30,231 nucleotides of DNA from a virus (lineage: Duplodnaviria > Heunggongvirae > Uroviricota > Caudoviricetes), in the IMG/VR virus record IMGVR_UViG_2695420421_000005. One strand, 5' to 3'. The translations under genes and the position numbers were made by a program. The notes below the pieces were generated by a model that was given only the letters and a program-made list of their open reading frames with translations, was not told the DNA's origin and did no database searches. Shown here piece after piece: positions 4,333 to 26,095 of this stretch. Positions within the stretch are counted from its first letter, which is position 1. Every line of letters starts with the position of its first letter.

Positions 4333-7300
4333 AGAAAGCGCCCTGCTCTTCGTAGCTGCATGAGCTATTCCCGGTAATGTATTCTCGTAACCGCCGCAGT
4401 TCATTGCTGGACAAGTGATCCATGAACTCTGTGAGGTACAGAGATGCAAACGTCATAGCTATGCTGGTTGATGACCATGATGACATAGTGGCCAGCTCCT
4501 CACCGGAAAGCGCACTCATCGCCCAGGACTCAGGAACAGCCACCGGCAATACGGCCAAAGCCTCAGAAATTACTGAATGAGGGGCGTTTTGAACCTGCTC
4601 GTTTGTGGATCGCGTTTTATCATCCATATATATATTGAGATCCAAATCGCGATCCATTTCGATGGCTGTCTTCTCGGCTTTACGCGTTTTTAGGGTTAGG
4701 CCATCTTTCTGACGCTGAACAAGAATATCCAGCATAAATGCCGCTGATTCAGGCTCAACAAAACGCAAGGTTGGACGCTTATCGCCGTCTCTGCCGCGAC
4801 GTTTACCTGTTTTAAGGCCAAGAGAGTCGCAAATGTTTTTAAACAACGCTTCCGGCACTTTAGGCTTCCCTTTTGGCGTCATAAAACCACCAATGTGCAG
4901 AACGTTATTCAACAGGTCACGGCGTTCGGCTGTCATGAGATTATCTCGAGCGAATTTGAGACGCTCCTGAGTCGCCTCGCCGGTCATAGTCTCAGGGTTG
5001 ATACCGCAGTCGATAAAGTACTGCCGGAGAGTTGCTGATTTAAGCGCATAGAAACCGCGCGCCCCGACTTCAACAGTAGGAGTAGCTTTTACCTTGTGAT
5101 CGATTATTCCAGGGAATTTAGTTTTAAAGACATCATCAGCCTGCTCGCGAGTCATCGCGGTCACTACAAAATATTGCCACTGTCCCGCCTGACGGTATGC
5201 GTAGGTAAAATTGATGGCTGCTTCTTCCCGGTCGTAACGACGAGCTGTTACCTCATCTAAAAGCATTGTTTCATAGCGGCGAACTTTGTCTCGAGCACCA
5301 TCGAAATAGAATTTCAGTGTGCCTTCTTCAACCGGTAGTTTCAGTTCGTTTTCAATATCCCAGCGGACAAGTTTTGCCTGTTCTTCAAGCGTCAGCGCGC
5401 GTTTTTTTAGCAGTTCTTCACGCTCTGATTCTTGTGGAGTTTCTGTATTGAGGTGCAGATCCAGTGTCTGTTCCCACACAATATCCCGCGCTTCTTTACG
5501 CAGATCTTTACCGATATCATTCGCAGCATAATCGGTGCCCAGCGGCGATACCTTATAACCGTCGCTGTGCATGATGCAGATCATGTTGCTGGCGTAGTCG
5601 TTACGCGCAGTCGCTTCAATTGCGGCTGCTTTAATTTTCATCCTGGTAAAGTCGGTATTGGCCACCCCCATTGATATACGGTCGCCATCGAAAATGACAT
5701 CCGTCAGTTCACCGTTCATACCTGCGGTAGCAAGCAATGCCTGGGCGAATGCTCGTTCTATTTTTTGCGGGTCAGTTTCACGTTTTGCACGAGCTTTATC
5801 AAAGCCGATAATAAATTCTTTTGCTGTACGGTCGCGGCGTAGCATTTGCACTGCGTCGCTGGGTACAACTTCACCACAGAACATGCCGAAATGACGGTCA
5901 AAATGTTTTTGCTCAATCGACACGCCGGATGAAATAGACGGGCTATAAATCAGGCCGTCGTATTTTTTGACCATCTTTTTCGGTTGATTGGTAAATGCTT
6001 CAACTTCTGGCTCTGGTTTGTTTTTCTGGTTTACACACAGAAATTTCTTACCAGGAAAATGCATTCTCAGGGTGGCTGTCACATCTTCTGCAAAGGTGGA
6101 GCTGTCGGTGGCCAACATGATTTTTTCGCCATCCGATACAGCTTTCACCACCTCGGTCATGATGCGATCTTTTTCTGTATAAAAAACCCGGATTGGCTCA
6201 CCTGTTTCGCGGTTGCGAACATCAACAGGTAATTCAATTACGTGGATCTGCAGCCATGCCGGTAAACCTAGTTCTTCACGGCGTTTCATAGCCAGTTCAG
6301 CCAGGTCAACCAGCAGATCGTTCGCATCAGCATCCACCATGATTGGGTGTTGTTCCGTTCTGGCCAGCGCGTCAATTAGCGTATTGAATACAGCCACCGG
6401 GTTTTCCATAGCCCGACCGGAAAGAACGGCACGTAGCCCTTGTGTGGCCTCGTCAAAGCCAAAATAGTCGTGCTGGCGCATCAACGGTTGCCAGCAGTTT
6501 TTAACAATCGAGTTTATGCAGATGGTCAGTTTACTGGCGTATGGAGCCATTTCCTGATAGCCAGGGTCCTGATAGTGCAGGATATCGGCTTTTACACCTT
6601 TTCCTTCAGTCATCATTTCCCACAGGCCACCAATAAGGGAAACACGGTGAGCTACAGAGATACCGCGTTCTGAGCTATGCATTAACGGTCGTAACAATCC
6701 AGTAGATTTGCCGGAACCCATACCAGCACGAACGATGACGATCCCCTGTAGTGATTGCACGTACTTCAGGACGTCATCGGTCATTACCGAAGTTTCAAAA
6801 CGCTTATAGGTGATATGTTGAGGGCGTTTATTGGGATCAGTTATGCGTTCGCTGAAAGAGCGCGGAGCCTGGGCAATACGGCACTTTTTATTCAGGCGAC
6901 GGGCAATGTGGTCTTTTACCGTAGCGCGATAGATATTTTCCAGCCCCATTTCACGCAGAACGATGCAGAACATGTTAAACAAATCTGACGGACTGTTAGG
7001 AACCGGACAGGTTAGCATGCCAATATCCACCGCTCTCAGCAGCTCTTTGGCAAAAGTACGACGGTTATCCCGCTTAATTGTCTTCAGGCGGTTGAGCGTC
7101 AGAGATAGCAAATCAGTGCCGGTTTTCAGGCGGTTTGCTGTTGCAAATAGTTGACGTGCTGTTTCACGAAGTCCACGTAGTTTGTGCAGGTCGTTGAAGT
7201 CACTGCACTCCATTTGCGGATCGTCTTCAAAAGTTGGATAGACGCAGCGGACATCGTTGAATTTCGATAAGATTTCATAGCCAGTCCGCAGGCCGGTATT

Positions 7301-8320
7301 CCCTTTTCCTTCTGTGGCTGATTTCCGGTCATTATCCAGTGCGCAGGTGATTTTTGCCGCCGGGTACATGTTTACCAGTTGTTCCACAACATGAACCATG
7401 TTGTTAGCGGATACAGCGACAACCACAGCGTCAAAGCGTTTATCTTTTTTCGTGGCAAGCCAGATGGATGCACCAGTAGCAAAACCTTCTGTAACAGCGA
7501 TGTTTTGCGCCCCTTTCAGCTCACCGATAACAAAGCAGGCACCGACGAAATCGCCGCTGGTTACTGCGCTGGTCTGGTATTTCCCACCTTGTTTGTCGAT
7601 TCGCTGCCAACCCACAATACGACCATCGTAACGACCGTCCAGGTGAGCCAGAGGGATAGCCATATATGTGGTTGGCCCCCGGTTCCATTTCGCACTGTCG
7701 TGACTGGTCACGCGACGCACATCACATGAACTAAAAACGTCACGAATACCTTTTTTAATCGCATATGGCCATGAGCCGTCTTCTGCAGGAGCATGTTCCC
7801 ACGCGCTGTGGAATGCCAGCCATCCCAGCAAACGTTCATGGTCCATTTGGTTGTTTTTCAGGTCATTAATTCGTTTTTGTTCTTCACGGCGACGACGTGC
7901 TTCGGCCTGACGTTTTATTCTTGCCCGTTCTTCTTCCGGTTGTGCGACCACGGTCGCATTATTCCGTTGTTGCTCACGGCGATATTCAGAAAACAGGAAG
8001 GAGAAACCGCTCCATGAGCCAGCATCGCTGCCTTTATGGACGAAGTTAATGAACGGGTAATCAATCCCTTTGCTGTGTTCCAGCCGGGAGTAAATTTCTA
8101 CGCGTCCTTTGAGGCTCTTTTCGAGAGCTTCTGGAGATGTTTTATTGTATGAAGAGTAACGCTCAACACCCCCGCGAGGGTTGAGTTGGATGTTGTCGGA
8201 ACAGGCAGACCAGTTGATACCAGCCATCTGTGCCAGCTCGGTTAGTTCATCCCGTGCTGCTTCAATTAGCGAGAACGGATCGCTGCCAAAGCGATCCGCA
8301 TAGAAATCGTTTAATGTCAT
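4325..8320 (-). CDS. repA: Replication protein RepA (primase-helicase), 1331 aa
   Basis: Size and position match N15 RepA (~1320 aa); Walker A motif GMGSGKST in the helicase region; sits between the telN side and the cB immunity region as in N15. Confidence 0.93.
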   Translation of the reverse strand: MTLNDFYADRFGSDPFSLIEAARDELTELAQMAGINWSACSDNIQLNPRGGVERYSSYNKTSPEALEKSLKGRVEIYSRLEHSKGIDYPFINFVHKGSDAGSWSGFSFLFSEYRREQQRNNATVVAQPEEERARIKRQAEARRRREEQKRINDLKNNQMDHERLLGWLAFHSAWEHAPAEDGSWPYAIKKGIRDVFSSCDVRRVTSHDSAKWNRGPTTYMAIPLAHLDGRYDGRIVGWQRIDKQGGKYQTSAVTSGDFVGACFVIGELKGAQNIAVTEGFATGASIWLATKKDKRFDAVVVAVSANNMVHVVEQLVNMYPAAKITCALDNDRKSATEGKGNTGLRTGYEILSKFNDVRCVYPTFEDDPQMECSDFNDLHKLRGLRETARQLFATANRLKTGTDLLSLTLNRLKTIKRDNRRTFAKELLRAVDIGMLTCPVPNSPSDLFNMFCIVLREMGLENIYRATVKDHIARRLNKKCRIAQAPRSFSERITDPNKRPQHITYKRFETSVMTDDVLKYVQSLQGIVIVRAGMGSGKSTGLLRPLMHSSERGISVAHRVSLIGGLWEMMTEGKGVKADILHYQDPGYQEMAPYASKLTICINSIVKNCWQPLMRQHDYFGFDEATQGLRAVLSGRAMENPVAVFNTLIDALARTEQHPIMVDADANDLLVDLAELAMKRREELGLPAWLQIHVIELPVDVRNRETGEPIRVFYTEKDRIMTEVVKAVSDGEKIMLATDSSTFAEDVTATLRMHFPGKKFLCVNQKNKPEPEVEAFTNQPKKMVKKYDGLIYSPSISSGVSIEQKHFDRHFGMFCGEVVPSDAVQMLRRDRTAKEFIIGFDKARAKRETDPQKIERAFAQALLATAGMNGELTDVIFDGDRISMGVANTDFTRMKIKAAAIEATARNDYASNMICIMHSDGYKVSPLGTDYAANDIGKDLRKEARDIVWEQTLDLHLNTETPQESEREELLKKRALTLEEQAKLVRWDIENELKLPVEEGTLKFYFDGARDKVRRYETMLLDEVTARRYDREEAAINFTYAYRQAGQWQYFVVTAMTREQADDVFKTKFPGIIDHKVKATPTVEVGARGFYALKSATLRQYFIDCGINPETMTGEATQERLKFARDNLMTAERRDLLNNVLHIGGFMTPKGKPKVPEALFKNICDSLGLKTGKRRGRDGDKRPTLRFVEPESAAFMLDILVQRQKDGLTLKTRKAEKTAIEMDRDLDLNIYMDDKTRSTNEQVQNAPHSVISEALAVLPVAVPESWAMSALSGEELATMSSWSSTSIAMTFASLYLTEFMDHLSSNELRRLREYITGNSSCSYEEQGAFYG
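7943..7958. repeat. sopC-like centromere-type inverted repeat TGCGACC-AC-GGTCGCA (copy 1, inside repA coding sequence)
   Basis: 7-bp inverted arms with 2-bp spacer, same architecture as the F sopC core TGGGACC-AC-GGTCCCA; five copies in this window. Confidence 0.5.
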
Positions 8321-10182: not shown

Positions 10183-10428
10183 ATGTTCAGGAAACCGTCG
10201 AAGCCAGAATTAAGGTATTCGGGGGTAAGAAATGAATATGTTATCTGGTGTCCAACTTGTGGTTACAGGACACGACCAGATAGTAATAAGCAGTCTGTAA
10301 TTGCCGATTGGTATTTATCAAATCAGCCAGGTAATAAGCATATAGAAAATCTTTGGATTAAGCGTTACTTGGAAATCAGAGAGGGTGCGACCGTGGTCGC
10401 ACAAGAAAATGAAAATAACGCCATTTAA
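10183..10428 (+). CDS. Small zinc-ribbon-like protein, possibly Lar-family restriction alleviation protein (81 aa)
   Basis: CPTCG plus VIADWYLS resembles the Lar-family CPFCG...AI.AWN pattern, but only one CxxC is present; start at the internal ATG after the upstream stop. Confidence 0.4.
   Translation: MFRKPSKPELRYSGVRNEYVIWCPTCGYRTRPDSNKQSVIADWYLSNQPGNKHIENLWIKRYLEIREGATVVAQENENNAI
10386..10401. repeat. sopC-like inverted repeat TGCGACC-GT-GGTCGCA (copy 2, within the 3' end of the Lar-like ORF)
   Basis: Same 7-2-7 inverted repeat as the other copies. Confidence 0.5.
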
Positions 10429-15576: not shown

Positions 15577-15582
15577 AAACTG

Positions 15583-15598
15583 TGCGACCACGGTCGCA
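15583..15598. repeat. sopC-like inverted repeat TGCGACC-AC-GGTCGCA (copy 3, intergenic)
   Basis: Same motif, 7 nt after the stop of the upstream gene. Confidence 0.5.
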
Positions 15599-15685
15599 CA
15601 GCACAAAAACGAAAAAGCTTGGCAAAATGACGGTTTTTAGTTATTGTTTTGTTAAGTTGGGTTTTTTGTACCCAACAGCCAACAA

Positions 15686-16963: not shown

Positions 16964-17015
16964 CGCCATATAGTTTCCAAGCCGAAACCTCAGCAACTAT
17001 TGCGAGGTAAGAGAT

Positions 17016-17288
17016 ATGAAGATGGATGAACGATACAGCAGTGCATCTTATGGTAGCGCTGGTCTTGCTGCGTTCTTTGCCAGCCTGTCATTGCAGGATT
17101 GGGGCTTCATTATCGGTGTCGCGTTCAGCATTATCCTCGGTGTGCTTACATACCGGCTCAATAAACGCGAGCAGATGAAGCGCACGAAGATATTGCAGGA
17201 CATATTGGATAAAACTAATACCAATAATCTTTCTGCTACAGCGATGGTTATTGGAGAGCTGGGGAAGAGAGCACCGAAGGAAATATGA
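17016..17288 (+). CDS. Holin with dual-start motif (MKM...), 90 aa
   Basis: Starts ATG-AAG-ATG as in lambda S; two hydrophobic segments; immediately upstream of and overlapping the endolysin gene. Confidence 0.7.
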
Positions 17289-17785
17289 TGCAGTCATCAT
17301 TACGCAAAGCTGTCACAGCTGCTATTGGTGGCGGGGCTATTGCCATAGCGTCTATGCTCATCACTGGCCCAAGTGGTAACGATGGTCTGGAAGGTGTCAG
17401 TTACATACCATACAAAGATATTGTTGGCGTATGGACTGTATGTTACGGACACACTGGAAAAGACATCATGCTAGGTAAAACGTATACCGAAGCAGAATGC
17501 AAAGCTCTCCTGAATAAAGACCTTGCCACTGTCGCCAGACAAATTAACCCGTACATCAAAGTCGATATACCGGAAACAACGCGCGGCGCTCTTTACTCGT
17601 TCGTTTACAACGTGGGCGCTGGTAATTTCAGAACATCGACGCTTCTTCGCAAAATAAACCAGGGCGATATCAAAGGCGCATGTGATCAGCTACGTCGCTG
17701 GATATCTGCTGGCGGTAAGCAATGGAAAGGCCTGATGACTCGTCGTGAGATTGAGCGTGAAGTCTGTTTGTGGGGTCAACAATGA
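17285..17785 (+). CDS. R: SAR endolysin (phage 21 R21-like lysozyme with N-terminal signal-arrest-release domain), 166 aa
   Basis: N-terminal weakly hydrophobic Gly/Ala-rich SAR segment [18 protein letters not shown] and close resemblance to phage 21 R as I recall it. Confidence 0.9.
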
Positions 17786-18219
17786 GCAGGGTAACCGCGA
17801 TTATCTCCGCTCTGGTTATTTGCATCATCGTCTGCCTGTCGTGGGCTGTTAATCATTACCGTGATAACGCCATCGCCTACAAAGAGCAGCGCGATAAAGC
17901 CACATCCACAATCGCTGATATGCAGAAGCGTCAACGTGACGTAGCAGAACTCGATGCCAGATATACAAAGGAGCTTGCTGATGCTAACGCGACTATCGAA
18001 AGCCTCCGTGCTGATGTTTCTGCTGGGCGTAAGCGCCTGCAAGTCGCCGCCACCTGTGCAAAGTCAACGACCGGAGCCAGCGGCATGGGCAATGGAGAAA
18101 GCCCAAGACTTACAGCAGATGCTGAACTCAATTATTACCGTCTCCGAAGTGGGATCGACAGGATAACTGCGCAGGTTAACTACTTGCAGGAATACATCAA
18201 GACGCAATGCCTGAATTAA
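17782..18219 (+). CDS. Rz: i-spanin Rz (145 aa)
   Basis: N-terminus [31 protein letters not shown] as in lambda Rz; ATGA overlap with the endolysin gene. Confidence 0.9.
17981..18166 (+). CDS. Rz1: o-spanin Rz1 lipoprotein embedded in Rz (+1 frame), ~61 aa
   Basis: Signal peptide with lipobox-like ...LLGVSAC, proline-rich mature region; AAGGAG 7 nt upstream of ATG 17981 (the ORF track also allows 17954). Confidence 0.75.
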
Positions 18220-18260
18220 TCCCTCTGTATCAAAAACGAGCTCAATTTGTTGGATAGTGA

Positions 18261-18572
18261 ATGAAAATTTATATTGCCGGGCCAATGACGGGATATGAGA
18301 ACTTTAATCGTGACGCCTTTAATAAAGAGGCAGATCGTTTGTCACGACATGGTCACTCTGTCTTGAATCCAGCCACTTTGCCTAATGGTCTGACACAACG
18401 TGAATACATGGATATTTGCTTTGCAATGCTTCGTTGTGCTGATGCTATTTTGATGCTTCCTGGCTGGAAAGCGTCTGCTGGAGCAACTGCTGAGTATCAT
18501 TACGCATACAAGATGGAGATGCCGGTATTCACTACGCTGAATTACCCGCCAGCTTGTTCCTCTGTAGCATAA
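18261..18572 (+). CDS. DUF4406-like protein (nucleoside 2-deoxyribosyltransferase-like fold), 103 aa
   Basis: N-terminus MKIYIAGPMTGYENFNRDAF typical of DUF4406 proteins found near phage lysis genes. Confidence 0.65.
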   Translation: MKIYIAGPMTGYENFNRDAFNKEADRLSRHGHSVLNPATLPNGLTQREYMDICFAMLRCADAILMLPGWKASAGATAEYHYAYKMEMPVFTTLNYPPACSSVA

Positions 18573-18592
18573 AAATCTCTTTGTTTCTCGTT

Positions 18593-18608
18593 TGCGACCG
18601 TGGTCGCA
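18593..18608. repeat. sopC-like inverted repeat TGCGACC-GT-GGTCGCA (copy 4)
   Basis: Same motif, immediately left of direct repeat A. Confidence 0.5.
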
Positions 18609-18619
18609 CATTAAATACC

Positions 18620-18795
18620 GCGCTGCATCGTCGCCGTATTTCCGCATTAACCATGACCGTAGCCCGACGGGGAACTCCTCTGCGCGAGTGTGCGGAAATA
18701 ATCAAAAACGATGCACACCGGGTTTTTACCGCGCTAATGATTCGCGGGTTTGTCCCTCATGCTCGCCAGTCCTGTGCGAGGGTGGAAGAAACAGG
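18620..18795 (+). repeat. Direct repeat A (~176 bp), ~90% identical to repeat B at 20405-20581
   Basis: Aligned by eye: long identical blocks (GAGTGTGCGG.AATAATCAAAAACGATGCACACCGGGTTTTTACCGCG; CCCTCATGCTCGCCAGTCCTGTGCGAGGGTGGAAGAAAC) with a short variable segment near the 5' end. Confidence 0.75.
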
Positions 18796-18812
18796 GCATG
18801 TATTCAGGAGCG

Positions 18813-18828
18813 TGCGACCGTGGTCGCA
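18813..18828. repeat. sopC-like inverted repeat TGCGACC-GT-GGTCGCA (copy 5)
   Basis: Same motif, immediately right of direct repeat A and 25 bp upstream of the gene X start. Confidence 0.5.
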
Positions 18829-18852
18829 CGGTATCTTTGTCAGGAGGTTTTG

Positions 18853-19713
18853 ATGAAAGAGTTGCAAAAAATTAATTCAATAATGGAAAGGTTAAGTGCT
18901 CTTGAGCGTAAGCTGGACGATTGTGGAAAGCTGTGTGTTGAAAAGCAAAATGAGCTTTACCGGGAATTTTTTACAATCGTAAGTGAGCTGATGCCAATTG
19001 TTAATAACTGCCTGATGACATCCAGATTTTTTAATGTCGATGCTACTACATCCAGAAAATTTTCTGTGAAAATTCAAGAAAGAGTTTCTGGTAGTGTGAC
19101 AAGAGAGATGGCTGAACAGTTGGTGGCAATGAGCAATAAAACAAAAAGAAAAAAGGCATTGCTTGTAACAGCAAATCAGCTTTCAGGGCGCGTTGACTTT
19201 CAGGTCAGACAGGGTGGGCGTGTACTGGTAAATGATGCGTTCGTTGGACGTAGCTTTAGTCCTTACTCGATGAAATATGATGTTGATGCAGATGATCAGG
19301 ATATCAGCATTTCCTGGAAATCTGAGACAGCAGGGATTGTATTAACAGCAGAGTTGTTGAATGATGATAAAAATGATGTCCAGCATCATTTGGACGAAAA
19401 GAATCATATTTCTGAAATTTGTATGAAGCCACGCAGCGGAATGACTTTATTGTCACGCACTCTTGCTGCTGGCTTTTCTGCACCGGAAAAACGTGTGCTT
19501 CTGGTAGTGCCTGAAGATGCAGATATTCGACCACTGAATGGCTGTGATGTTATTAGTGCAAAAACATTGCATACCCGCGTCATTCCTGTACCGGATGTGG
19601 TCATTATTGATGATGTTGAGAAATGCAAGTCTGTTTCCTCAACTGCCACAATCAAGCGAATTTTACGTTGTAGCACGTCGGCTGTTGTATTCCGGAAGCA
19701 GTTACATAACTAA
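18853..19713 (+). CDS. Hypothetical protein X (286 aa), AT-rich gene of unknown function
   Basis: AGGAGG 6 nt upstream of ATG 18853; the ORF-track N-terminal extension from 18592 runs through the repeat and palindromes and is rejected; no motif recognised. Confidence 0.75.
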   Translation: MKELQKINSIMERLSALERKLDDCGKLCVEKQNELYREFFTIVSELMPIVNNCLMTSRFFNVDATTSRKFSVKIQERVSGSVTREMAEQLVAMSNKTKRKKALLVTANQLSGRVDFQVRQGGRVLVNDAFVGRSFSPYSMKYDVDADDQDISISWKSETAGIVLTAELLNDDKNDVQHHLDEKNHISEICMKPRSGMTLLSRTLAAGFSAPEKRVLLVVPEDADIRPLNGCDVISAKTLHTRVIPVPDVVIIDDVEKCKSVSSTATIKRILRCSTSAVVFRKQLHN

Positions 19714-19838
19714 CCAGTTTTGTTTTGCAGAACATCCTCAACTAAAAGCTTATAGAAAGAGAGCCTGAGATATTTTTTCTGTCTCTCGTAGTTGTTTGTT
19801 TTTTTTTCGAACAGACTTACAACTTACAGGATATAAAC

Positions 19839-20288
19839 ATGCAAGAAGAAGCAAATAAAATTCTTGTTGATTTATTGAAGAAGGCCAGCGATGGAATTGA
19901 TTCCGCCATTGTATTCAGTCAGGCTCAAATTCCGGATGTTGTTCATCAGTTGCTGGTATGGAATATGGTTGATAGCCTGATTAAAACATTAATAGCCATT
20001 TCAACAATTCCGCTGGTTATTTGGTTTATGAAGAAACAGTGCAAAAAAGTTGAAATTGGTAAGTTCGATAATGAAGGACGCTCATGCGATAATGGACAGC
20101 CTAAATACAAACCAACTATGCTTTGGGAAAGTGACGGTAGGTTAAGTGGTTTTGTCTTACCATTAGTAGCAGTTTTTATTCTATGGTTCAGTTTTATTAT
20201 TTCTGTAGTAGCCAATATGACATGGTTAAAAATTTGGCTGGCACCTAAGTTATATCTAATCGAATACGCAGCATCACTAATTAAATAG
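19839..20288 (+). CDS. Hypothetical two-TM membrane protein Y (149 aa)
   Basis: Two hydrophobic helices (LIKTLIAISTIPLVIWFM; GFVLPLVAVFILWFSFIISVV); AT-rich; preceded by a hairpin plus T9 run after gene X. Confidence 0.7.
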   Translation: MQEEANKILVDLLKKASDGIDSAIVFSQAQIPDVVHQLLVWNMVDSLIKTLIAISTIPLVIWFMKKQCKKVEIGKFDNEGRSCDNGQPKYKPTMLWESDGRLSGFVLPLVAVFILWFSFIISVVANMTWLKIWLAPKLYLIEYAASLIK

Positions 20289-20345
20289 TCCATTACAAAA
20301 GCCATTCGCTACTGAGTGGCTTTGATAATGGCTTATACCCTACAC

Positions 20346-20372
20346 GGGATAACTTAACTGATATCCCTTTTA
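20346..20372 (+). terminator. Possible terminator after gene Y
   Basis: GGGATA-N10-TATCCC hairpin followed by TTTT. Confidence 0.4.
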
Positions 20373-20404
20373 ACGGATAAAGGTATTCAAGCCTGACACA
20401 TCAT

Positions 20405-20581
20405 GCGCTGTATCGTCGCCGTATTCCCGTCTTAACAGAGACCGTAGCCCGACGGGGAACTCTTTCTGCGCGAGTGTGCGGGAATAATCAAAAACGATGC
20501 ACACCGGGTTTTTACCGCGTTTATGGTTCGCGGGTTTGCCCCTCATGCTCGCCAGTCCTGTGCGAGGGTGGAAGAAACCGG
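20405..20581 (+). repeat. Direct repeat B (~177 bp), partner of repeat A
   Basis: See repeat A; lies between gene Y and the cos site. Confidence 0.75.
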
Positions 20582-20639
20582 ATATTAATGCAAGTGATAA
20601 ACATTCTCATTTTCTCGGGTCCTTTCCGGCGATCTGACA

Positions 20640-20835
20640 GGCTACGGGGCGGAAGGCGCGCGGGTTTTCGCTATTTATGAAAATTTTCCGGTTTAAGGCG
20701 TTTCCGTTCTTCTTCTCCGTAACTTCATGTTTTTATTTAAAACACCCACTGAAAAGAAAGGAAACGACAGATGCTGAAAACGGGCTTTTTGGCCTTTGTC
20801 GTTTCCTTTCTCTGTTTTTGTCCGTGGAATGAACA
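20640..20835. other. Lambda-type cos site (cosN with flanking cosQ/cosB-like sequence) upstream of Nu1
   Basis: ...CTACG|GGGCGGAAGGCG|CGCGGGTTTTCGCTATTTATGAAAATTTTCCGGTTTAAGGCGTTTCCGTTCTTCTTC... matches my recollection of the lambda genome ends except 6 nt inside the 12-nt cohesive-end position (20647-20658). Confidence 0.8.
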
Positions 20836-21355
20836 ATGGAAGTCAACAAAAAGCAGCTGGCTGATATTTTCGGTGCGAGTATCCGTACCATTCAGAACTG
20901 GCAGGAGCAGGGAATGCCCGTTTTGCGAGGCGGTGGCAAGGGTAATGAGGTGCTTTATGATTCTGCCGCCGTCATAAAATGGTATGCCGAAAGGGATGCT
21001 GAAATTGAGAACGAAAAGCTGCGCCGGGAGGTTGAAGAACTGCGGCTGGCCAGCGAGGCAGATCTTCACCCCGGAACACTTGAATTTGAGCGCCATCGCC
21101 TGACTCGTGCTCAGGCGACGGCGCAGGAACTGAAAAATGCCAAAGAATCGGCTGAAGTGGTGGAAACCGCATTCTGTACTTTCGTGCTGTCGCGTATAGC
21201 AAGGGAAATATCCAGTATTCTCGACGGTATTCCTCTGTCGGTGCAGCGACGTTTTCCTGAGCTGGATAACCGGCATATTGATTTCCTGAAACGGGATATC
21301 ATCAAAGCCATGAACAAAGCAGCCGCGCTGGATGAACTGATACCGGGGTTGCTGA

Positions 21356-21381
<26 letters not shown>
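20836..21381 (+). CDS. nu1: Terminase small subunit Nu1 (lambda-like), 181 aa
   Basis: Near-identical to lambda Nu1 (MEVNKKQLADIFGASIRTIQNWQEQGMPVLRGGGKGNEVLYDSAAVIKWYAERDAEIENEKLRREVEELR...). Confidence 0.95.
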
Positions 21382-25062
<3,681 letters not shown>

Positions 25063-25082
<20 letters not shown>

Positions 25083-25584
25083 TCTCCCGCATATTGCCAG
25101 CATGGCTTTTAATGAGCCGCTGATGCTTGAACCCGCCTATGCGCGGGTTTTCTTTTGTGCGCTTGCAGGCCAGCTTGGGATCAGCCGCCTGACGGATGCA
25201 GTATCCGGCGACAGCCTGACTGCCGGAGAGGCACCCGCGGCGCTGGCGTTATCCGGTGATGATGACGGACCACGACAGGCCCGCAGTTATCAGGTCATGA
25301 ACGGCATCGCCGTGCTGCCGGTGTCCGGTACGCTGGTCAGTCGGACGCGGGCGCTGCAGCCGTATTCGGGAATGACTGGTTACAACGGCATTATCGCCCG
25401 TCTGCAACAGGCTGCCAGTGACCCGATGGTGGACGGCATTCTGCTCGATATGGATACGCCAGGCGGAATGGTGGCGGGGGCATTTGACTGCGCTGACATC
25501 ATCGCCCGTGTGCGTGACATAAAGCCGGTATGGGCGCTGGCAGTCGCTGGACATATGCTGGCGGTAAGCAATGGAAAGGGCTGA
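25063..25584 (+). pseudogene. C: Truncated head protease/scaffold gene C (lambda-like): first ~160 codons then an unrelated 13-codon tail and stop
   Basis: GTG start and MTAELRNLPHIASMAFNEPLMLEPAYARVFFCALAGQLGIS... match lambda gpC up to ...[11 protein letters not shown]; sequence then switches to the 3' end of an endolysin gene. Confidence 0.85.
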
Positions 25585-25634
25585 TGACCCGTCGTGAGAT
25601 TGAGCGTGAAGTCTGTTTGTGGGGGCAGCAATGA
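25543..25634 (+). pseudogene. 3' remnant of a SAR-endolysin gene (last ~29 codons: ...[29 protein letters not shown])
   Basis: ~93% identical at DNA level to the 3' end of the intact endolysin gene at 17696-17785; no upstream part of the gene present. Confidence 0.8.
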
Positions 25635-26095
25635 GCAGAGTCACCGCGATTATCTCCGCTCTGGTTATCTGCATCATCGTCTGCCTGTCATGGGCTGTTA
25701 ATCATTACCGTGATAACGCCATTACCTACAAAGAGCAGCGCGACAAAAACGCAAGAGAACTGAAGCTGGCGAACGCAACCATTACTGACATGCAGCAGAG
25801 ACAGCGTGATGTTAATGCACTCGATGCTAAATACACGAAGGAGTTAGCTGATGCGAAAGCTGAAAATGAAACTCTGCGCGCTGATGTTGCCGCTGGTCGT
25901 CGTCGGTTGCACATCAAAGCAGTCTGTCAGTCAGTGCGTGAAGCCACCACCGCCTCCGGCGTGGATAATGCAACCAGCCCCCGACTGGCAGACACCGCTG
26001 AACGGGATTATTTCACCCTCAGAGAGCGGCTGATGACGATGCAGATGCAACTGGAAGGGGCACAGGAGTATATCCGCACTCAGTGCATTAAGTAG
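25631..26095 (+). CDS. Rz: i-spanin Rz (second copy, closer to lambda Rz), 154 aa
   Basis: [49 protein letters not shown]... resembles lambda Rz. Confidence 0.9.
25851..26033 (+). CDS. Rz1: o-spanin Rz1 (second copy), 60 aa
   Basis: [20 protein letters not shown] lipoprotein signal and PPPPP region as in lambda Rz1; embedded in Rz in the +1 frame. Confidence 0.85.

Follow-up and report, generated by a model that had tools for sequence, protein, structure and literature searches.

RNase III signals and 3′ stabilising structures sit between the genes of phage polycistronic mRNAs, as exemplified by the R1.1-type sites of T7 and the sib retroregulator of lambda. Conserved boundary sequences called linkers were reportedly proposed by Susskind and Botstein and by Clark et al. 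to mediate modular exchange among lambdoid phages. Moreover, the late regions of prophages are rich in genes for small regulatory RNAs (sRNAs) (PMC4104026; bioRxiv 10.64898/2026.05.13.724894). The present analysis concerns an element occurring as two direct copies, A and B, in the DNA of a tailed phage (IMG/VR record IMGVR_UViG_2695420421_000005), and the window is the whole stretch of 30,231 nucleotides (nt) that was analysed.

The element is a genuine, sharply bounded, widespread and non-coding module that is conserved in sequence and fixed in orientation. Its pairing is strand-specific and accompanied by compensatory changes, and the evidence for a conserved RNA fold is moderate. With slightly better than even confidence, it is interpreted here as a discrete module of about 180 nt found in Escherichia lambdoid and N15-like phages, which lies in the late operon between lysis and packaging genes, would act as RNA in the Q-dependent late transcript, and would have been duplicated by mosaicism.

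Identity, distribution and boundaries of the element

A repeat search of the window returned two blocks offset by a 1-nt indel, one joining 18620-18677 with 20405-20462 (58 nt, 88% identity) and the other joining 18679-18806 with 20465-20592 (128 nt, 91%). In a global alignment of the copies, 168 of 188 positions are identical, while a covariance model built from the 5′ two-thirds of the element detected exactly two copies in the window (A, 124.3 bits; B, 123.1 bits), the next match reaching 15 bits. These searches confirm the original prediction, made from the sequence of this stretch, of two direct copies of an element of about 176 bp. The same prediction confined the differences between the copies to a short segment. 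This segment is real (CATTAACCATG in A, TCTTAACAGAG in B), but it accounts for only part of the roughly 20 positions at which the copies differ. Its two versions represent alternative alleles that are both widespread. A small hairpin was expected in both versions; in the usual second form, TATTAACAGAG, the proposed 3 bp are unpaired.

The module is present in 424 phage records (426 copies), comprising Escherichia, Shiga toxin (Stx)-converting, Shigella and lambda phages. Salmonella phages have the neighbouring lysis genes but are absent from the listed element-bearing groups, a list in which four minor groups are not named. Among complete E. coli genomes, 4592 of 5426 carry the element, mostly unannotated; the copies total about 11,770, the median being 2 per genome and the maximum 11. 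When one genome per species was scanned with an exact 20-mer, Escherichia alone proved to carry it, apart from lambda spike-in contamination. The matches outside this genus (in Pseudomonas, Bacillus, Cohnella, Flavobacterium and others) are contigs of about 48.4 kb or about 3.5 kb with the lambda allele, and most likely represent leftover lambda control DNA.

The element always lies downstream of the lysis genes in late-gene orientation, and at Rz-anchored loci 13/13 covariance-model hits fall on the Rz strand. In the simplest arrangement it begins 14 nt past the Rz stop codon, and in prophage Sp10 of O157 Sakai it begins 11 nt past the annotated Rz stop. The lambda copy occupies 46869-47035, between bor and lambdap78, and in DLP12 of K-12 the element fills the borD-ybcV spacer. 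The element is optional, yet where it occurs, neither its place nor its orientation varies.

The left edge is the identical base beside at least eight unrelated left flanks, which include the Rz stop, bor, the lambda type, a DUF4406 gene with an inverted repeat (IR), and a common leader. The right edge is the end of a helix, S2, of the fold described below. Similarity in BLAST seemed to end at several right-hand points; on inspection, all forms extend through diverged sequence as far as a conserved GGAAGAAAC-NGG motif, and the unit therefore measures about 165-185 nt in all lineages. The leader, which in the window precedes copy B and holds the hairpin AAAGCCATTCGCTACTGAGTGGCTTT (AAAGCCA...TGGCTTT), is a module separate from the element. 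About 55 of 80 phages with related Rz possess the leader but no element; in them, the first packaging gene, with its ribosome-binding site and ATG, comes directly after it.

That the element is the remnant of a protein gene, or a gene for a small protein, is barely credible. Some records annotate short hypothetical open reading frames (ORFs) over it, and in DLP12-type prophages ylcI ends at its right edge. However, the ORFs over copies A and B differ in frame and strand through the 1-nt indel, close relatives are likewise separated by 1-nt indels, start codons are unconserved, and lambda-type copies have extra +1/-1 indels. The search for a full-length parent gene, of which the element might be a duplicated fragment, revealed neither a parent nor a conserved frame. 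The nearest annotated gene family, YlcI/YnfO, merely abuts the element on the opposite strand. A ylcI fragment was rejected as a candidate, its overlap with the element being only 7 nt, and most genome annotations leave the element blank.

The proposed RNA fold

A structure-blind MAFFT alignment of 89 distinct sequences was folded with RNAalifold. In alignment columns, the consensus pairs 6-12 with 91-97 (helix P1) and 18-28 with 73-83 (helix P2), includes a small inner hairpin, and has a 3′ hairpin of 157-163 with 181-187. A CTCGC/GCGAG stem (150-154 with 164-168) and a variable hairpin, P4, were added to this fold. Since the added stem (S1) crosses the 3′ hairpin (S2), the two would form an H-type pseudoknot. 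P1 measures 7-8 bp and P2 10-11 bp. The positions of these helices in copy A are listed in Table 1. Two contigs (L434 and L447) carry only the 3′ domain, either from P4 onward or the pseudoknot, fused to unrelated upstream sequence, an arrangement indicating that the 3′ domain can occur without the 5′ domain.

Several helices are kept in different sequences. S1 appears as CUCGC/GCGAG, GUCGC/GCGAU, GCCGC/GCGGU or GCCAG/CUGGC, and P4 as CCGCG/CGCGG, CUGUG/CGCAG or UCUCAU/AUGGGA, with other lineages keeping a hairpin at that place. One pair of P2 is U-A in copy A, G-C in lambda and C-G elsewhere; one of P1 is seen as U-G, U-A or C-G; and one of S2 is U-A in 40 sequences and G-C in 36. Further variants are A-U for G-C in P1 and C-G for U-A in P2. 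Copy A compared with copy B has U-A for C-G in P2, a compensated change, and C-G for U-G in P1. The GGAAGAA loop and AUAAUCAAAAAC are invariant while adjacent bases vary.

The 32-pair nested fold is paired in 98.0% of cells vs 95.3 ± 0.2% in shuffles (0/500), with 7 pairs changed on both sides vs 4.3 (4/500) and a covariation score of 0.160 vs 0.111 (0/500). With the pseudoknot included (45 pairs), the paired fraction is 96.4% vs 92.8% and both-side changes number 11 vs 7.5 (9/500), while the 3′ pseudoknot alone gives 94.8% vs 84.4% paired and a covariation score of 0.317 vs 0.153. Slid controls reached at most 62% paired for the 32-pair fold and a covariation score of at most 0.094 for the 3′ pseudoknot. 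Pairing is strand-specific, as 98.0% of cells pair on the plus, late-transcript strand vs 82.7% on the minus strand. S1 is 92.0% and S2 96.7% paired, with both-side changes in 3/5 and 3/7 of their pairs, so that both crossing helices of the predicted H-type pseudoknot are maintained in evolution.

S1 corresponds to the CTCGC...GCGAG hairpin of the original prediction, which is thereby supported. Two of the three hairpins named there are not the supported ones, one of them being a local GTGTGC...GCACAC hairpin. Its bases fall in the long-range helices P1 and P2 in the consensus, and it shows no covariation. It competes with P1/P2 and is disrupted by exactly those substitutions that P1/P2 compensate; it was not scored as a terminator.

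Two further observations concern the pseudoknot. GGGUUUG, 9 nt before it, was considered as the slippery site of a -1 frameshift signal, and this idea was dropped as there are no flanking ORFs. The sequence GATGGTGG in the pseudoknot loop resembles Chi at 7/8 positions in some alleles and at 6/8 in copy A.

Searches for a described counterpart gave the following results. With Rfam 15 at the gathering score, only C4 (2774-2860) and isrK (2886-2959) pass in the whole window, and at E<=10 no match overlaps either copy, so that the element has no Rfam match, including C4, IsrK, AgvB, AsxR, STnc100, ribozymes and riboswitches. A full-text paper search yielded no result, either for sequence strings of the element, written as DNA or as RNA, or for the palindrome beside it, the supplements of Tree et al. 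(2014) searched for its sequence yielded nothing, and literature searches on borD/ybcV and the PhiR phage paper gave nothing relevant. The suggestion that the element is a structured RNA is supported, though not proven, by its edges matching the conserved fold, the compensatory changes and the strand-limited G-U pairs; the lack of an Rfam match and the weak z-scores speak against it.

A probable role within the late transcript

Most likely, the element acts as RNA within the Q-dependent late transcript, to judge from the predicted fold and its place in the operon. An RNA embedded in cis in that transcript is suggested by the sense orientation, the place right after the lysis genes, the interrupted helix with a pseudoknot, the lack of a promoter or terminator, and dispensability. 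Our best guess is that it would serve as a cis-acting processing or stability element marking the end of the lysis-gene message. It might do so by being cut by RNase III/E or by blocking 3′ exonucleases, and the geometry of P1 plus P2 appears compatible with an RNase III site, for which an interrupted helix of roughly 20 bp is required. Alternatively, it may yield a stable processed RNA. A bolder proposal, which we put forward tentatively as possible rather than probable, is that the element represents an undescribed family of phage structured RNAs. This family of about 180 nt would combine a 5′ double-helix domain with a 3′ pseudoknot carrying the GGAAGAA loop, would be present in lambda, DLP12 and most Stx and lambdoid prophages, and would have a specific late-transcript role, either separating or stabilising lysis and packaging messages or as a processed RNA acting on host or competitor functions.

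A number of observations weigh against the preferred reading of an RNA acting within the late transcript. With regard to the fold, the pair-count measure, which is the more robust one, is not significant for the 3′ domain alone (6 vs 4.8, 100/500), and the single-sequence minimum free energy z-scores are not significant either (-0.6 to -1.5 for the window copies, -1.0 to -2.2 for lambda, -0.6 for Sp10). In each of the first two patterns used for retrieval, one arm of P1 or of P2 was kept constant. In a sample fetched via the 3′ motif, and hence unbiased for the 5′ domain (36 distinct sequences), P1-P3 are barely above shuffles (39/500, 43/500 and 10/500). The sequences are close kin (mean column identity 92%) and recombining, so that linked haplotypes can mimic covariation, and several single substitutions break pairs. 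With regard to the role, the element occurs in just 12 of 80 viral loci with near-identical Rz and is missing from N15 itself, which makes it dispensable for lysis and packaging. No promoter was found within or upstream of it, and a terminator scan detected no terminator-like site inside either copy; TTTTT at 18723-18727 is split from the nearest helix end by CACCGGG, and the GTGTGC/GCACAC stem has a loop of 19 nt. Three Hfq crosslinking peaks that on first impression seemed to lie inside the element, EcOnc10, EcOnc11 and EcOnc12, lie just past its 3′ end on the opposite strand once their coordinates are corrected. Finally, the specific processing or stability role is purely what we infer. In effect, support is strong for the 3′ pseudoknot and weak for the 5′ helices in the unbiased sample, and the fold is probably a selected RNA structure.

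These weaknesses lend some weight to a functionless conserved spacer, kept by shared ancestry and module exchange as a homology linker for swapping lysis and packaging modules and morons. Identity among copies (80-100%) resembles that of the flanking R/Rz genes, many different flanks meet at the edges of an optional element, the neighbouring leader module behaves alike, and z-scores as well as covariation in the unbiased 5′-domain sample are weak. However, neutral DNA is not expected to keep helices via changes on both sides, nor does a spacer account for the 15-point pairing excess on one strand. P4 and S1 are swapped for different yet complementary sequences, GGAAGAA and AUAAUCAAAAAC stay invariant amid variable neighbours, and the edges are helix ends. 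The spacer explanation is consequently judged rather unlikely, and an RNA acting within the late transcript is preferred.

An independently transcribed trans-acting sRNA, possibly Hfq-dependent, like AgvB, AsxR, the Pas RNAs and IsrK, is improbable. The wealth of sRNA genes in prophage late regions fits this idea, as do the A-R-N-like single-stranded runs AAUAAUCAAAAAC and GGAAGAAAC in the sequence and a U run after P1. Against it, there is no promoter-like site upstream, where the sequence varies between phages, there is neither a canonical terminator nor a match to an Rfam sRNA, and the element is not among the Hfq-bound orphan sites listed for O157 Sakai, a list of the top orphan peaks in which weak binding may be missed. 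The known prophage sRNAs AgvB, AsxR, Pas and STnc100 were rejected as candidates, being located at the pR′ site upstream of the lysis genes.

EcOnc10-12 are strong published Hfq crosslinking peaks of O157 Sakai, with no Northern result in the table of that study (Tree et al. 2014). Their coordinates were corrected by a genome-version offset of +137 to +146, anchored on AgvB. After correction, EcOnc11 maps to 6457-6514 on the minus strand of L400 (Sakai Sp10), where the element occupies 6258-6438 on the plus strand, placing the peak 19-76 nt beyond the element. EcOnc11 falls on a terminator-like hairpin, CUGCUGUGACUCCAACACGGCAG, followed by U7 (about 6447-6514, minus strand). This hairpin lies downstream of ECs_1967, which presumably is ynfO-like, and converges on the element, directly abutting its 3′ end.

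Origin of the two copies

Copies A and B are different alleles. Copy A is 100% identical in phage PhiR46_1 and E. coli plasmid p13TMH22-2 and 98-100% identical in N15-like relatives, while copy B is 97.2% identical to the single-copy elements of Stx-type phages vs 89-91% to copy A. As copy B is nearer to Stx-type elements than to copy A, modular recombination rather than local duplication is indicated. In copy B, the covarying S2 pair (20559/20579) is a U-C mismatch, and P2 ends in a C-U mismatch. The 5′ and 3′ arms of copy B belong to different allele types, which points to a crossover inside the element, and its mismatches fit a recombinant, slightly degraded copy. Some relatives lack the cassette and have an A-type element followed by the IR, about 60 nt and then cos. 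In this N15-like phage-plasmid, the Rz-cos interval was probably assembled by modular recombination: copy A is the allele that single-copy relatives have next to a SopB centromere site and cos, and copy B probably came from a lambda/Stx-type donor within a block of leader, element and cos-proximal sequence.

The copies bracket a two-gene cassette (18853-20288), whose proteins match phrog_2571 and phrog_3054, PHROG families of unknown function, with no Pfam hit, no PADLOC hit and no similarity to N15 gp59. Situated at a moron hotspot that separates the lysis genes from cos, the cassette is rarely found in relatives, and two of these, L011 and p13TMH22-2, have an internal deletion in it. Homology to it was found only in relatives of the window phage and in none of the donor-type phages. 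The two copies, with 89% homology over about 180 bp, could loop out the cassette.

This arrangement raises the idea that the element captures and exchanges cassettes, either as a target of site-specific recombination or as a small mobile unit of the miniature inverted-repeat transposable element (MITE) or attC type. The two direct copies around the cassette, the sharp left edge and the internal inverted repeats agree with it. Nevertheless, we consider it very improbable: position and orientation are fixed and the position is syntenic, the inverted repeats are internal and not terminal as in a MITE or insertion sequence, the flanks show no target-site duplication, and no recombinase gene lies near the element. 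The flanking palindromes are SopB sites, the copies are different alleles, and relatives show an internal deletion as the sole variant, with no exchange of cassettes between repeats. The suggestion of a recombination site survives in a passive sense only, through recurrent mosaic joints and about 180 bp of homology around the cassette, with no site-specific signs. Mosaicism acting on a module of the late transcript is the preferred account of the duplication.

SopB-type palindromes and the surrounding genes

Copy A is flanked by two copies of an 18-bp palindrome, GTGCGACC(GT/AC)GGTCGCAC, which occurs five times in the window vs 0 expected by chance (Table 1). Across many viral contigs the palindrome does not vary even though its flanks have diverged, and it is underrepresented in long open frames. 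The N15 SopB centromere sites IR1-IR4 share the core GTGCGACCnnGGTCGCAC (PMC7205306, Table 4). The window palindromes equal these cores, and the sites at 7942 and 10385 also share the flanks of IR1 and IR2. This match identifies them as partition sites that are not part of the repeat, and the idea that they belong to the element or signal recombination was rejected. The number of sites and the match of the window to an N15-like plasmid-prophage with protelomerase and RepA also support N15-type SopB sites; the sopAB genes lie outside the window. The window phage has five such sites, two of them bracketing copy A, whereas N15 has four; the likeness lies in the identical core and in the dispersal of the sites through an N15-like genome. 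In relatives, the right edge of the element-adjacent site is a recurrent junction, followed by the cassette or by cos-proximal blocks.

The window matches an N15-like linear phage-plasmid. The surroundings of copy A are 100% identical to p13TMH22-2, whose gene set comprises protelomerase, a RepA of 1331 amino acids (aa), cB/cro/Q, lysis genes, lambda-like Nu1/A, and head and tail genes, and phage PhiR46_1 is 96% identical to the window over 17000-21500.

Table 1. Positions of the element, its helices and neighbouring features in the window
Feature	Position	Strand	Remark
Holin	17016-17288		
R	17285-17785		
Rz	17770-18219		
DUF4406 protein	18261-18572		
SopB-type palindrome TTGCGACCGTGGTCGCAC	18592-18609		18 bp, immediately left of copy A, outside the element
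Copy A	18620-18799	+	similarity to copy B extends to 18806
Copy A, 5′ domain	18625-18714	+	P1 18625-18631 / 18708-18714; P2 18637-18647 / 18690-18700
Copy A, P3	18662-18666 / 18685-18689	+	enclosed by P1 and P2
Copy A, P4 (CCGCG/CGCGG)	18729-18747	+	flanks GGG 18720-18722, CCC 18754-18756
Copy A, 3′ H-type pseudoknot (predicted)	18762-18797	+	S1 18762-18766 / 18776-18780; S2 18769-18775 / 18791-18797
Copy A, invariant GGAAGAA loop	18784-18790	+	
SopB-type palindrome GTGCGACCGTGGTCGCAC	18812-18829		immediately right of copy A
Cassette ORF 1	18853-19713	+	286-aa protein
Cassette ORF 2	19839-20288	+	149-aa membrane protein
Conserved leader module	20290-20381	+	precedes copy B
Copy B	20405-20585	+	similarity to copy A extends to 20592
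cosQ/cosN	about 20595-20650		after copy B
Nu1	from 20836		
All SopB-type palindromes	7942-7959, 10385-10402, 15582-15599, 18592-18609, 18812-18829		

Further along the window, a 205-nt direct repeat (25543-25747 vs 17694-17898, 192/205 identical) marks a breakpoint. At about 25540 a lambda-type C (S49 peptidase) gene is cut and fused to the 3′ end of a second R gene, and beyond this point follow a second Rz (25619-26095), an HNH endonuclease, and P27/HK97-type TerS, TerL and portal genes. The breakpoint implies that the window either combines two phages or is an assembly chimera. No copy of the element is present at the second lysis-packaging junction.

The C4 antisense RNA and the IsrK-like RNA found with Rfam lie on the minus strand, score 73.6 and 62.8 bits, respectively, and adjoin an icd-like gene. 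The interval 2774-2959 is a P1/N15-type antirepressor immunity region. It holds the 14/16 match to part of the element that had been noticed at 2782-2797 in noncoding DNA. This match exists, at about 2781-2795, but lies inside the C4 gene, within the hit to Rfam RF01695 and with isrK adjacent, and is at chance level, as 15-mers with at most one edit occur 0-3 times per window in shuffled windows. A third copy of the element at this place was rejected, the covariance model of the element missing it as well.

Significance and comparison with known systems

Lambda and Stx phages are among the most studied viruses, yet the module has no Rfam match and no printed sequence in the papers searched. 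If its fold is functional, the element would be a new cis-acting RNA element in the lambda late operon and would offer a handle on the balance between lysis and morphogenesis messages. As the region is dispensable in lambda, the element is easy to test. If the fold is not functional, it represents an ordinary case of mosaic phage architecture. In addition, the element reliably marks the moron hotspot between lysis and packaging genes, which hosts bor/iss, ylcI/ynfO and the present cassette.

The element can be compared with several described systems. Like the prophage sRNAs AgvB/AsxR, STnc100/Pas, IsrK and C4, it is non-coding, restricted to Escherichia prophages, multicopy within a genome and conserved in its late-region position. 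Unlike the element, those RNAs are located in the immunity region or, ahead of the lysis genes, at the pR′ moron site, have their own promoters and terminators, and are represented in Rfam. With the linkers of lambdoid phages, it shares the character of a short conserved non-coding boundary stretch with many alternative neighbours, here duplicated by exchange; linkers are defined by homology alone, whereas the element adds strand-specific compensated pairing. With the T7 R1.1-type and sib elements, it would share a sense-oriented place between functional blocks of genes on a long phage transcript, and two coaxial helices with an internal loop between them. It differs from them in having no sequence similarity, an extra 3′ pseudoknot and an optional occurrence among close phages.

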